5,506 nt of DNA from a virus: the IMG/VR virus record IMGVR_UViG_3300029359_000078; one strand, 5' to 3'. How positions within the stretch are numbered: the first letter of the stretch is position 1; each line of letters starts with the position of its first letter. Both the position numbers and the translations under genes were made by a program. This document shows positions 124 through 5,506 of the stretch, piece after piece. The notes under the pieces are model-generated. The model was not told the origin of the DNA. It saw nothing but the letters and a program-made list of their open reading frames with translations, and made no database searches.

Positions 124-295
124 CAAACTCACCTAAACAATACAAGTGGAAGTCGCCGAGATGCTGACTAACAAGACTCCGACTATCATTACACAAATCA
201 CTAAAAGAACGGCCAGCAACCAAGTCATTCTGGGCAAAGTACGGCGTATTGAAGCACTGTGCTTTATCATCCAAGATTGAATAAACTTTAAGCAT
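17..295 (-). CDS. Small conserved gokushovirus non-structural protein, VP5/ORF5-like (92 aa)
   Basis: ATG at 293-295 is preceded by AGGAG with a 10-nt spacer (minus strand aaAGGAGctgttacgaaATG); TAG stop at 17-19. MLKVYSILDDKAQCFNTPYFAQNDLVAGRSFSDL...GEFDDEKG resembles, from memory, the short VP5-type proteins encoded next to VP4/VP3 in gokushoviruses. The 3' end overlaps the VP3 start by 17 nt in another frame. The last 104 nt are duplicated at 5400-5506 by the terminal overlap. Confidence 0.7.
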   Translation of the reverse strand: MLKVYSILDDKAQCFNTPYFAQNDLVAGRSFSDLCNDSRSLVSQHLGDFHLYCLGEFDDEKGLLKPYDMPNFISHALQYANVERNDADGDTF

Positions 296-1702: not shown

Positions 1703-1813
1703 TCAAAATAAAGCGTCAATCGTACTGACTATAAGAATCAGCACGAAAAGCACAATAGATAAAGCGAGCAGCAGCGAACAGCAAAACAAAATAAAATTAA
1801 TGAACTTAATCAT
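1703..1813 (-). CDS. 36-aa hydrophobic single-pass membrane peptide (hypothetical; candidate lysis or membrane-targeting factor)
   Basis: Not in the supplied track. Hand translation gives ATG(1811-1813) MIKFINFILFCCSLLLALSIVLFVLILIVSTIDALF TGA(1703-1705). AAGGAA lies 9 nt upstream of the ATG, the same spacing as other genes here. The ATG overlaps the upstream ORF stop (ATGATTAA, 8-nt overlap), and its TGA sits at the 5' edge of the next gene's SD (1692-1705), which suggests translational coupling. Confidence 0.5.
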   Translation of the reverse strand: MIKFINFILFCCSLLLALSIVLFVLILIVSTIDALF

Positions 1814-1985: not shown

Positions 1986-2013
1986 ATCTATCAACTCTCC
2001 CTTCTATGTTTAA

Positions 2014-2042
2014 ATTATAACATAGTTTAAATAGAAAGTCAA
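2014..2042 (-). promoter_or_regulatory. Near-consensus sigma70-type promoter: -35 TTGACT (2037-2042), 17-nt spacer, -10 TATAAT (2014-2019)
   Basis: The minus strand reads aaatctaTTGACTttctatttaaactatgtTATAATttaaacatagaaGGGAGAGttgatagatATG. That is 5/6 and 6/6 matches with optimal 17-nt spacing, in the 67-nt VP2/ORF59 spacer, followed by an SD and an ATG. Confidence 0.7.
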
Positions 2043-3118: not shown

Positions 3119-4817
3119 TTAGAAATGGTCAAGGAGACCAGGAACACCGTAGACAGGCATCGGACGAGCACATTTTAGATCTAAATACGCATCAAGATAA
3201 AATTGCGGTTCAGTCTGCACCGCACTAATGCGCTTAATAGCTTGATAGGAAGCCTGATCTTGAATAAACTCACCGTTAAGAGCAGGGAGCGCATCAAATT
3301 TCTGGGCAAAGTGCCAAACATCCGTACTCTGCGCATACGTCGAGCGCATCTTCCCAGTAATGATAGACGGATGGTAACGACATTCGGCGTAACGTTCTTG
3401 ATAGCCGAAGACCTGGTTGTCAGCCTCAGTACCTTGTGCGTAAATTTCTTTATTAAGAATCGCTTGCTCACCTAAATGAGCAAAAGTAGGCCAATAAAAT
3501 TCTTCTCTCGTTTGGCGAAGCCATGTCTTATTGATACCCTGCTGGTAACTCAAATCAGTACGGATATTACACAAACCGATTACAATACCGTGCTCCGTAA
3601 ACGATTTATTAAAGCCATGAATACGCGTACTCATCAAAGCATAGGCAGATAAGTTACCTTGCGGAGAAATAGTGTCCGTAGAAGACGTCTGCTGAACAGG
3701 ATTGAACATAATCGGGGTTGAATCACCGCCGAGGTATTCGCTGCGCTGCAAACGAGCATCCGGCGAAATAATACCAAAATGCGAACGAATAATTTCAGTA
3801 TATCTCGTACCACCACGAGCGTCTTTTTCATAGAATCGTTGAAGCGCAAAAGCAGAACGTAAGCTATTAATTGTAATAGATGCCAAGTCAGAAACAACAG
3901 CTCTACCACCTTGAGACAAATCCGCAACAAGACCAGACTCGCCAACAGGGCCAATACCAGTCAAAGCGTTAGATGTAGGAAGAGAACCATCGCTATATTG
4001 ATAATAAGGCGTGTCATGATTATCGCCGCGAAGGCCGAAACTACCTAAACGACGATCGCCGAAATGGAAAATACTAGCAGTAGGGTCAGAAGCACCAACA
4101 GGGACATTACCAATCAAACTAGCATCACCGGCCAAAGATATTTCCACACCGGGGCCTTTTTGTGGCCAAGGAAGCGCGCTTGTAAAATAATCATGACGCT
4201 TACCGCGATAAAAACATTGAGCAGTCGCAGCATCTTGCGTAGCATCGCCACCATAAGCATCGTCTTCTGATGAAGTCGAAGAAAGGGGAGCACCAGTCTG
4301 AATAGACACAGCGTTTTGAAGATTTTCGTCGCGAAACCAATCGTTGTAGATCTTCCAATAGGCTCTAAACGGAAACGCACTTACGGATAACTTATTTTTT
4401 ACATCAGTCGGAAAACCGAAATAATCCCATAACGTTTGAACCTGTGCATCAGTAGCCGTCATCTGAGGTACTTCATATTCTGTGCTCTGATAGCCAGCAA
4501 GCGGGTTTTCACCGTTCAAGCGGGTTTTCACCGTTGAACTCTTTCCAATGCTTCCATAACAAGCGATATGGAACGAAAAAAAAGAAAGTATCCATATAAG
4601 CATTATCCATCGCCGGAACAATAGGCGTAGCCATACGACCAAAAAGCGTTGCTTTACAATTAAAAGTATCGCCAGGGTAAACTTCGTCTATATAAAACGG
4701 AACAAGTCGACCTGCATCCAACGTAGTCTTAACCGTATGAGAACGCTTGAAAGAAGAACGCGGAATTTGGTTTTGCGGGCTTATAGCAAAGTTATGCTGA
4801 GTAGCTCTTTTTGACAT
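3119..4817 (-). pseudogene. Major capsid protein VP1 (phiX174 F-like jelly-roll capsid), interrupted by a +19-nt frameshifting tandem duplication
   Basis: ATG at 4815-4817 follows AGGAG with a 10-nt spacer. The N-terminal fragment (track ORF 4509..4817) reads MSKRATQHNFAISPQNQIPRSSFKRSHTVKTTLDAGRLVPFYIDEVYPGDTF...MDNAYMDTFFFFVPYRLLW, a typical gokushovirus VP1 N-terminus. The remaining 459 aa lie in a different frame (track ORF 3119..4642, from NGENPLAGYQ onward) and end at TAA 3119-3121. The span is 1699 nt (not divisible by 3); minus 19 nt it is 1680 nt, or 559 aa. Confidence 0.9.
4498..4535. repeat. Perfect 19-bp tandem duplication (caagcgggttttcaccgtt x2) inside VP1
   Basis: 4498-4516 and 4517-4535 are identical and directly adjacent. 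The flanking bases differ (g4497 vs t4516; c4517 vs g4536), so the unit is exactly 19 nt. Confidence 0.97.
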
Positions 4818-4978: not shown

Positions 4979-5416
4979 CTAACTGTTAACATCATTGGCT
5001 GCATTATTATCCGTGTTCTCCGTATGATTATCAGACTCAATAACGGTCTTAGTAGCAAGACCCATGGCCACAAGCTGGTCTAAATTTTCCGGGTTATCAA
5101 CGAATTCCAAGAAAGCAGCTGGGTCATAGTTGAATTGCTTGCGGACTTCCAAAGGCAAATTATCAAAATTACTCTTAGCTTCAATCATGCGATTGTACAT
5201 CTCTTGCGCATTATCTGGCAGCGATGCGAAATCACCAAAAACAGGCTGTGCAGGCTGACCGTCACCATGGAACGTAGGCATAACGCCAGAAGAGTCATAC
5301 ATTGAAACGATATAATTGATATCTGCTTCATCTTTAAACTGCTGCTGCGTCATGGAAGGGGCAGAAGACTTCCACCCTTCTCGAACACCGGCATTATATC
5401 TAGAACGTATCTCCAT
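4979..5416 (-). CDS. Internal scaffolding protein VP3, 145 aa
   Basis: MEIRSRYNAGVREGWKSSAPSMTQQQFKDEADINYIVSMYDSSGVMP...FGDFASLPDNAQEMYNRMIEAKSNFDNLPLEVRKQFNYDPAAFLEFVDNPEN resembles, from memory, the chlamydiaphage/gokushovirus VP3 scaffold family. I chose the start at ATG 5414-5416 (equivalent to 31-33) because AAGGAA lies 8 nt upstream. The track's 175-aa version begins at the window edge and overlaps the VP5-like gene. TAG at 4979-4981. Confidence 0.85.
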   Translation of the reverse strand: MEIRSRYNAGVREGWKSSAPSMTQQQFKDEADINYIVSMYDSSGVMPTFHGDGQPAQPVFGDFASLPDNAQEMYNRMIEAKSNFDNLPLEVRKQFNYDPAAFLEFVDNPENLDQLVAMGLATKTVIESDNHTENTDNNAANDVNS

Positions 5417-5506
5417 CAGCATCATTCCTTTCGACATTAGCATACTGTAAAGCGTGACTAATAAAATTAGGCATGTCATACGGCTTAAGAAGACCTTTTT
5501 CGTCAT
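5384..5506. repeat. Terminal redundancy, right copy (identical to 1-123)
   Basis: 123/123 identity with the first 123 bases of the window. Confidence 0.95.

Follow-up and report, generated by a model that had tools for sequence, protein, structure and literature searches.

A conserved mini-ORF for a probable single-helix membrane peptide, and tentative lysis candidate, in a clade of Megasphaera-associated gokushoviruses

Background

Protein E of phiX174 (Bullavirinae) is an inhibitor of MraY that depends on SlyD. It has 91 amino acids (aa), with one N-terminal transmembrane helix that contains an essential proline and with a basic C-terminal domain, and its gene is overprinted within the scaffolding gene D. 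In the single-stranded RNA (ssRNA) coliphage M, the single-gene lysis (Sgl) protein LysM (also SglM) has only 37 residues and blocks MurJ (PMC12506998). Gokushoviruses, which share the virus order of phiX174, are without a known lysis gene (PMC7062461), and how they leave the host is an acknowledged gap: E is absent, and peptidases are present in only some of them (PMC7062461, PMC3394797, PMC9239249). Here we analyse a short open reading frame (ORF), called TM36 in the following, on the minus strand of a 5506-base stretch of viral DNA (IMG/VR record IMGVR_UViG_3300029359_000078; "the window" means this whole stretch). We find that TM36 is very probably a translated gene for a single-pass membrane peptide. 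A first-pass annotation of the window had named it a candidate for a lysis or membrane-acting factor. That this peptide is a lysis or membrane-killing effector we regard as possible, and we put it forward, tentatively and by analogy, as our best guess.

Gokushoviruses are among the most abundant single-stranded DNA (ssDNA) phages of guts and oceans. Single-gene lysis proteins are by nature mutually unrelated, so that a comparison has to rely on form and context. Proteins like L of MS2 reportedly (this is said to go back to Chamakura and colleagues in 2017) have a basic N-terminal domain, followed by a hydrophobic domain with a conserved Leu-Ser. Fst, TisB, Hok and the S21 pinholin have 30-50 residues, are essentially one transmembrane helix each and collapse the membrane potential. 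In ssRNA phages, functional Sgl genes have been recovered by asking for at least 25 codons, a Shine-Dalgarno (SD) sequence and a transmembrane domain (Chamakura et al. 2020, PMC7693330). In other microvirus families, lysis-associated accessory genes are located between VP1 and VP4 (PMC9239249).

Results

TM36 runs from the ATG at 1813-1811 to the TGA at 1705-1703 (minus strand) and encodes 36 aa (MIKFINFILFCCSLLLALSIVLFVLILIVSTIDALF), with a lysine at position 3 (K3) and an aspartate at position 33 (D33). Its SD sequence, AAGGAA at 1828-1823 (minus strand), is found 9 nucleotides (nt) before the ATG, within the 3' end of the preceding ORF, orf59. The stop codon of orf59 (TAA, 1808-1806) overlaps the TM36 start as ATGATTAA, 8 nt in length. 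Just past the TM36 stop begins the SD sequence GAGAGGAA (1698-1691) of the next gene, which encodes a small basic protein and starts at ATG 1683, 19 nt beyond the TM36 stop and behind GAGAGAGAGAGGAA. On re-reading, everything that had initially been said about the letters was correct: the limits of the ORF, the SD sequence 9 nt upstream, the overlap with the stop of a 59-aa ORF and the TGA adjoining the SD sequence of the following basic-protein gene. The window has a further in-frame ATG upstream, at 1819; since the relatives read ATA at this position, ATG 1813 is the conserved start. The T content of the ORF is 49.5%, compared with 31% for the coding strand overall.

To gather relatives, we used orf59 and VP4 as anchors. 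The clade set consists of 32 genomes (6 from GenBank, 17 from IMG/VR, 7 metagenome contigs, 1 Logan contig and the window itself). The closest GenBank relatives are Gokushovirinae or Microviridae genomes from pig faeces, with 85-88% nucleotide identity. MG945884, another close relative in GenBank (the seventh), is not in the set, its record being partial and without the TM36 region. In 31 of the 32 genomes, the TM36 mini-ORF is intact between an orf59-like gene and the basic gene, in 26 distinct DNA versions. The view of TM36 as a genuine, tightly packed and positionally conserved coding ORF of a gokushovirus-type genome is borne out.

The versions fall into two types. Type A has 33-37 aa and follows the pattern MIK(F I[KN])FILFC[CWH]SL..ALS..LFVLILIVSTIDALF; type B has 31-34 aa and follows MKVGTPVALFCWLVLAILVVSLVISILDVFL. 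Between the types the identity is 26-32%, only L9, F10, C11, V24 and D33 are invariant, and the DNA around TM36 could not be aligned by megablast. The indels between A and B measure 9, 12, 15 and 9 nt, so that every one of them is in frame. An SD-like motif (GAAAGGAA, GAGGAGAG or AAGGAGAT) precedes the ATG in each cassette subtype, despite the differing C-terminus of orf59, and in both types the ORF overlaps the orf59 stop (ATGATTAA in A, ATGA in B) and ends 4-19 nt ahead of the ATG of the basic gene.

We calculated the ratio of nonsynonymous to synonymous polymorphism (pN/pS) for the TM36 frame; it is 0.42 for the 15 type-A sequences and 0.27 for the 11 type-B sequences. The two shifted sense frames gave 0.52 and 0.78 in type A and 0.63 and 4.5 in type B, that is, the TM36 frame has the lowest ratio in both types. 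Stops are always present in the remaining two sense frames. The open frame on the antisense strand we do not count as a signal, as it follows trivially from the lack of Tyr, His and Gln in the peptide.

The best 19-residue stretch of TM36 on the Kyte-Doolittle scale has a value of 3.19 and the whole peptide a mean of 2.47, while the classical threshold for a transmembrane segment is 1.6. Residues 7-29 have an additive Hessa free energy (dG) of -7.2 kcal/mol, and the variants range from -2.7 to -5.2 kcal/mol. AlphaFold2 models TM36 as one helix, residues 2-35, with a predicted local distance difference test score (pLDDT) of 96.9. Hydropathy and model thus agree with the single hydrophobic helix, with a Lys near its N-terminus (K3) and an Asp near its C-terminus (D33), that had been described before. 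Only two ORFs in the genome reach a 19-residue value of at least 3.0, namely TM36 and an ORF that we call orfX (see below), where mononucleotide shuffles of the coding strand lead us to expect 0.003 such ORFs per genome. Residue replacements in TM36 nearly always exchange one of Leu, Ile, Val, Phe, Ala, Cys and Trp for another. Arg occurs at position 12 in three variants of type A, and a 19-residue hydrophobic core remains in them.

The case for a gene is based on these observations taken together: two long-diverged cassettes have kept the ORF, the start, the SD sequence and the helix, their indels are in frame, and the hydrophobicity is extreme.

Next, we looked for homologues. A word-indexed protein search with TM36 (query padded to 41 aa, 5.8 billion proteins) returned only four clusters of 33-36 aa, and phmmer against 1.84 billion cluster representatives returned its own cluster alone. 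We were not able to find any match of TM36 in Pfam, PHROGs (E <= 0.01), NCBIfam or PADLOC, nor an Rfam family match for the region. As far as these sequence searches reach, TM36 is without a homologue beyond its clade. In the literature searches, too, we did not find any paper that describes the TM36 peptide or any gokushovirus lysis peptide.

TM36 is part of a larger unit. Between the VP2 stop (2062) and orf59 there is a putative, near-consensus promoter (2042-2014, minus strand), composed of TTGACT, a 17-nt spacer and TGtTATAAT, with an extended -10 box; it is the top sigma-70-like match of the whole window (11/12 plus TG). The type-B cassettes have kept it as TTGACA, 17 nt and TGtTAGAAT. 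In type A, an inverted repeat, CTATGTT(8 nt)AACATAG (2004..2025, minus strand), spans the -10 box and the predicted transcript start (near 2007), and there are also two direct copies of TTTAAAC near the -10 box. Type B has other repeats at the same place (CTRTTAG/CTAACAG copies, with the 7-mer CTGTTAG / CTAACAG). The repeat sequence switches together with the orf59 type (seen in the window, in the genomes L005, L035 and L040 and in others). The inverted repeat could be an operator or a hairpin, and the joint switch suggests, on sequence grounds, that orf59 may be a type-specific autoregulator. We also observed that the promoter region, when folded as ssDNA, forms a long hairpin pairing the -35 box with the SD sequence (z = -2.6). 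No terminator-like site was found on the coding strand from the promoter to VP4, and no promoter-like site on the opposite strand at 1700-1830.

The first gene of the unit, orf59, starts at ATG 1985 (59 aa; 62 aa from TTG 1994), has an acidic tail and always accompanies TM36. Its AlphaFold2 model, made from the single sequence, is a two-helix hairpin (pLDDT 79), and it has no match in Pfam, PHROGs, NCBIfam, PADLOC, PDB sequences or Foldseek. We considered orf59 as a ribbon-helix-helix repressor and found no support for it: Pfam at E <= 10, a PDB profile and AlphaFold2 with Foldseek give a generic helical hairpin only. Also rejected was a 29-aa ORF in an alternative frame of orf59 (1921 to 1832); it has a 19-residue value of 1.97, is not conserved between the cassette types, and we do not regard it as a gene. 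Cassettes A and B are interleaved among VP4 lineages that are 94-100% identical, hence promoter, orf59 and TM36 have been exchanged as one block by recombination. Both the dedicated promoter and the cassette that TM36 shares with orf59 had been overlooked in the first-pass annotation.

The window is a circular genome of 5383 nt plus a terminal redundancy of 123 nt, and the minus strand carries every recognisable gene. In a scan against Pfam and PHROGs, Phage_F, Chlamy_scaf, Phage_ORF5, the Rep domain, the pilot-protein PHROGs and phrog_10695 were all matched. With VP1-VP5 and a VP8-like gene on one strand of a circle in the class of about 4.5-5.5 kb, the genome is of the gokushovirus type. The genes are the following:

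4817 to 3119, minus strand: VP1, major capsid protein (Phage_F)
3105 to 2062, minus strand: VP2, pilot protein (pilot-protein PHROGs)
1985 (or 1994) to 1806, minus strand: orf59, 59 (or 62) aa, no family
1813 to 1703, minus strand: TM36, no family
1683 to 1570, minus strand: gene of a basic 37-aa VP8/J-like DNA-binding protein (phrog_10695, E = 9e-10)
1429 to 512, minus strand: VP4, replication protein (Rep domain)
295 to 17, minus strand: VP5 (Phage_ORF5)
5350 to 4979, minus strand: VP3, scaffold protein (Chlamy_scaf)

The VP8-like protein is 89-97% identical in the relatives. We scanned ten ORFs (Pfam/PHROGs) and found no match to E, peptidase or lysozyme families. The earlier statement that gokushovirus-type microviruses lack a recognisable E homologue holds for this genome, in which no lysis gene is recognisable, in agreement with the literature (PMC7062461).

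We asked which host the clade infects. One relative is integrated in a bacterial chromosome: a cluster member (P0004) is located on a 19.9-kb contig (Logan contig SRR31306416_161) that contains one exact genome unit (L026, 6448-11820), with TM36 intact. The insertion point is in the gene of a zinc-ribbon protein, after codon 43 and before codon 44, and the homology there is a single nt (C). Ten flanking proteins were looked up; 10/10 were present in the protein collection and 9/10 were identical to sequences named Megasphaera or M. massiliensis, while the tenth, the truncated zinc-ribbon product, falls in a cluster of Megasphaera zinc-ribbon proteins. The host chromosome around the insertion is thus that of a Megasphaera, M. 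massiliensis-like. Megasphaera is a Negativicute, and Negativicutes are Firmicutes with an outer membrane (diderm). The flanks name a Negativicute host for the clade, and the strong SD sites across the whole genome are consistent with it. A dif-like site or an adjacent phage integrase was not found at the insertion, which may be Rep-mediated or illegitimate. When integrated relatives were sought in one genome per bacterial species, we found only a distant Bacteroidaceae element. As a side observation, the breakpoint on the phage side is near window position 5338, within VP3 codon 5, and host DNA gives VP3 a new start (MFLQ replaces MTQQQ).

We then compared the region with that of other gokushoviruses. 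In two distant ones (VP4 35-43% identical) in which the region upstream of VP4 was read, the upstream gene adjoins the basic gene and there is no TM36 slot; the distant genomes, these two included, measure 4.1-4.8 kb versus 5.4 kb. In a survey of 60 diverse gokushoviruses we were not able to find any fixed slot for a universal small transmembrane ORF: about 7 of the 60 have any non-overlapping small transmembrane ORF, at varying positions, and most hydrophobic ORFs are off-frame by-products. The expectation of a conserved hydrophobic mini-ORF in the VP2-VP4 spacer holds within one clade (31/32), but it is not general to gokushoviruses.

Short transmembrane-grade ORFs of their own, at or just past the VP4/VP5 junction, were seen in the genomes labelled L078 (1115-1198), L079 (2922-3005), L082 and L109, and likewise in L052, L083, L087 and L108; one example of such a junction ORF, MILLLMLMVGLFFFLLLVLLFGVLLTK, is conserved in four gokushovirus genomes. 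Small transmembrane ORFs may have arisen repeatedly among gokushoviruses.

Finally, we noted three features of the window outside the cassette. At 4498-4535, a tandem duplication of 19 nt (two copies of CAAGCGGGTTTTCACCGTT) frameshifts VP1 into ORFs of 102 aa and 507 aa; it is private to the window, as no relative carries it, and is either an assembly or sequencing artefact or a sign of a defective genome. Between the basic gene and VP4, at 1442-1579, there are two tandem 69-nt units, 71% identical and each beginning with AAAACATGGCTAACCAGG, the second of which runs on into the basic gene at its 3' end. In some relatives the spacers are shorter and the insert appears to be missing; it could be an origin or a regulatory element. 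The VP3 frame is open for 52 codons upstream of ATG 5350 (MTKKVFLSRMTCLILLVTLYSMLMSKG..., 5351-5506 / 1-123), overlapping the 3' end of VP5. GenBank annotators counted this extension within "similar to VP3"; since the prophage junction parts it from VP3, it is probably not an essential part of that protein.

Discussion

How does TM36 compare with the described single-helix proteins? It resembles LysM in size, hydrophobicity and membrane embedding, and both belong to tiny phages without a muralytic enzyme. LysM has a functionally important acidic residue, D18, and TM36 has one invariant Asp (for LysM, PMC12506998). On the other hand, LysM consists of two helices with a kink and an amphipathic surface helix at the C-terminus (PMC12506998), whereas TM36 is modelled as one straight helix of 34 residues, uninterrupted from 2 to 35 and with no amphipathic part. 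Furthermore, LysM comes from an ssRNA virus and TM36 from an ssDNA virus, and the hosts differ.

With E, TM36 has in common the virus order, a single transmembrane helix and a genome without endolysin. Unlike E, it is 31-37 aa long and has no extramembrane domain; type A has no proline at all, and P6 of type B is not conserved between the types. While E is overprinted, TM36 is free-standing and intergenic, with only the 8-nt overlap with its neighbour, and it gave no match to the E family in Pfam or PHROGs at E <= 0.01. In its genomic arrangement, orfX is nearer to E than TM36 is. The description of MS2 L-like proteins does not fit TM36 either: one basic residue precedes the helix, and the Leu-Ser is found in type A (ALS) and not at the aligned position of type B. 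As for holins, the C-terminus of TM36 is STIDALF with a single Asp, the genome has no endolysin, and the holin models of NCBIfam and PHROGs are unmatched.

In form, TM36 is similar to Fst, TisB, Hok and the S21 pinholin, and its combination of weak sequence constraint and kept hydrophobicity would fit their bulk-membrane mechanism. It differs from them in that there is no evident antisense-RNA partner, charged tail or adjacent endolysin, and depolarisation alone could lyse a diderm host only with the help of that host's autolysins. The signature used for ssRNA phages is also that of TM36, with 36 codons, AAGGAA 9 nt upstream, a transmembrane-grade helix and no muralytic enzyme in the ten scanned ORFs. 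The comparative pattern is common to both as well, that is, SD sequence, start, stop, length and transmembrane domain are kept despite low identity (PMC7693330). Most of the ssRNA-phage candidates are, however, embedded in other genes, whereas TM36 stands by itself, within an accessory cassette that has a promoter of its own. In summary, TM36 belongs to none of the compared families and at most works like the single-helix lysis peptides or hydrophobic membrane toxins. As Sgl proteins are mutually unrelated, a validated TM36 would nevertheless be a new member of this functional kind, and the first for gokushoviruses.

Observed are the layout and conservation of TM36, its hydrophobic helix, the promoter-like site, the host and the lack of another recognisable lysis gene; the translation of TM36, its topology and each functional step of the following proposal are inferred. 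TM36 would be a single-pass inner-membrane peptide of 31-37 residues, with the short Lys-bearing N-terminus facing the cytoplasm and the C-terminal S-x-[IL]-D-x-[LF]-[FL] at the outer face. It would be expressed as the second gene of a cassette in which a strong sigma-70 promoter, with repeats across its -10 box, is followed by orf59 and then by TM36; the phage, a gokushovirus associated with Megasphaera and able to integrate, carries this cassette in the interval from VP2 to the VP8-like gene. Transcription would be shared with orf59, and probably also with VP8 and VP4, because no terminator-like site intervenes. Translation may be coupled, with ribosomes that end orf59 starting TM36 via the ATGATTAA or ATGA overlap. 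The peptide would then build up in the cytoplasmic membrane and act as the killing or lysis effector of the phage. It might do so by jamming the membrane step of cell-wall precursor supply, like Sgl proteins, or by depolarising the membrane, like pinholins and small hydrophobic toxins. In this scheme orf59 would be a co-adapted regulator or antagonist of TM36. Points in favour of a lysis role are that no muralytic or E-like gene was matched in the ten scanned ORFs, that TM36 lies in the VP1-VP4 interval, where other microvirus families have lysis-associated accessory genes (PMC9239249), that it agrees with the criteria for Sgl genes (PMC7693330), that LysM is of similar size (PMC12506998) and that the host is diderm. 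Since hardly any residue is conserved between the types, TM36 is unlike the specific contacts of E or LysM, and on sequence grounds its weak constraint would be better explained by bulk-membrane damage or a fast co-evolving target.

A number of observations weigh against the gene, against its proposed function, or both. The constraint on TM36 is weak: its pN/pS of 0.27-0.42 stands against 0.05-0.07 for the VP8-like gene and VP4, and in type A it is barely below that of one shifted frame (0.42 vs 0.52). The anticipated bias towards synonymous substitutions is therefore there in direction, as the lowest pN/pS of the sense frames, but it is slight (0.42 and 0.27, neighbours about 0.05). A permutation of columns within the types was not significant; the ORF stayed open in 70% (A) and 31% (B) of the trials, so that the within-type data alone are no proof of coding. 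The exceptional genome (IMGVR_UViG_3300045988_126467, here L037, 5258-5383) has lost 7 nt, with the Ser-Ile-Leu codons deleted and a frameshift over the last seven codons, the conserved C-terminus, after which the TM36 frame reads on into the start of the basic gene; this is a null allele of natural origin or else a mistake in the assembly. A polar domain and a conserved proline or kink are missing from TM36, and the two types have hardly any residues in common. When ssRNA-phage ORFs with an SD sequence and a transmembrane domain were tried in E. coli, most proved non-lytic (PMC7693330), so that this signature does not by itself establish function. Should VP4 (Rep) be driven by this promoter too, the peptide would appear early in infection. 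The architecture of the cassette fits a regulator-effector or toxin-antitoxin pair or a function in the carried state as well, and, as a lysis candidate, orfX is equally good. The lysis interpretation, which draws on analogy, is reasonable but unproven.

The second ORF of extreme hydrophobicity deserves a closer look, all the more since it had been overlooked before and is at least as E-like as TM36. Its 45-aa core (MIKHSASIRRTLPRMTWLLAVLLVICVMIVGVLLVSISATSTCIV; 133-270, minus strand) lies in the +1 frame over VP5 codons 9-54, and in the window the frame extends to ATG 438 (101 aa). A basic N-terminus is followed by a very hydrophobic helix (19-residue value 3.3). Potentially, orfX could be the lysis protein, comparable with E within D of phiX174, and TM36 a real but auxiliary peptide, for example for lysis timing or as a membrane partner or antagonist. 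The frame is open in all clade genomes examined. The synonymous diversity (pS) of VP5 falls from 0.41 outside to 0.20 within the orfX overlap, with the lowest third-position variation over the transmembrane segment; yet the N-terminal half of VP5 is also more constrained as a protein, which may alone lower pS. A transmembrane-grade ORF at or near +25 of VP5 is present in 10 of 56 distant gokushoviruses, while the other 46 have no comparable orfX, and the ATG at +25 is imposed by a conserved Asp-Asp of VP5 (GATGAT). Moreover, hydrophobic ORFs in other frames are a frequent compositional by-product in gokushoviruses (73 on the coding strand versus 5 antisense in the 60 genomes), and pN/pS in the orfX frame is 0.93. 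We consider this division of roles unlikely, albeit worth keeping in view.

Rather unlikely, too, in our opinion, is a non-lytic role of TM36 in the carried or integrated state, such as superinfection exclusion or modulation of a host membrane protein, with expression from the cassette promoter. The relative integrated in Megasphaera keeps TM36 intact; the promoter with its operator-like repeats stands apart from the structural genes; and an accessory cassette that is swapped among backbones is typical of host-interaction genes. Gokushovirus lysogens do show superinfection immunity, by a mechanism that is unknown (PMC7062461). However, we know a single integration event, which disrupted a host gene with 1 nt of homology, so that lysogeny may be accidental. 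The genes VP8 and VP4 of the lytic cycle are probably on the same transcript as TM36, and TM36 has no similarity to known exclusion proteins or PADLOC models.

An addiction or abortive module similar to toxin-antitoxin systems seems improbable to us. Here, orf59 would be a dimeric, DNA-binding antitoxin that represses its own promoter, and TM36 a toxin of the membrane, lethal to cells in which the phage is lost or the two products fall out of balance. The layout resembles that of type II systems: a strong promoter has repeats at its -10 box, the first gene encodes a small protein whose tail is acidic, and the second ORF overlaps the stop of the first (ATGA or ATGATTAA); the repeats change with the orf59 type, and orf59 and TM36 are inherited together. 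But no DNA-binding fold was detected in orf59, whose generic two-helix hairpin gave no ribbon-helix-helix or helix-turn-helix match, and neither protein matches toxin-antitoxin or PADLOC models. Besides, antisense RNA, rather than a protein, is the usual control of the small hydrophobic toxins that are known, and a phage genome of 5.4 kb leaves little room for a pure addiction module.

Least probable of all, and hardly to be expected, is that there is no functional peptide and that the T-rich stretch, with an incidentally open frame, is kept as a leader delivering ribosomes to the VP8 start or as a DNA or RNA element: chance openness is compatible with the within-type permutations, pN/pS is high for a gene, the synonymous diversity of type A (0.17-0.27 vs 0.44-0.50 in the neighbours) hints at nucleotide-level constraint or recent exchange, and gene callers rarely predict TM36 (4 protein clusters in 5.8 billion), but both types, unalignable by megablast, keep the ATG, the SD sequence, 31-37 codons, in-frame indels and a transmembrane-grade helix, VP8 expression can do without a leader, as distant relatives have no such stretch between the upstream gene and VP8, and the T-rich stretch matches no Rfam family.

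Conclusions

Returning to TM36 as a possible lysis or membrane-killing effector, one can extend the proposal to the whole cassette. Promoter, orf59 and TM36 might form a self-contained and exchangeable unit for lysis control in gokushoviruses whose hosts are diderm Firmicutes, with TM36 as the first gokushovirus lysis effector, a bare transmembrane helix, and with orf59 as a type-specific regulator or antagonist that acts via the promoter repeats. We regard this extended form as doubtful.

The analysis makes the question of gokushovirus lysis testable, as it provides two natural types of the peptide (31-37 aa), the partner orf59, a promoter, the rival orfX and the host genus Megasphaera. Even a non-lytic TM36 would leave the cassette as a previously unrecognised accessory module in a microvirus with the capacity for a temperate life. 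If it is lytic, TM36 would rank with the smallest known protein antibiotics and would indicate a Negativicute target.

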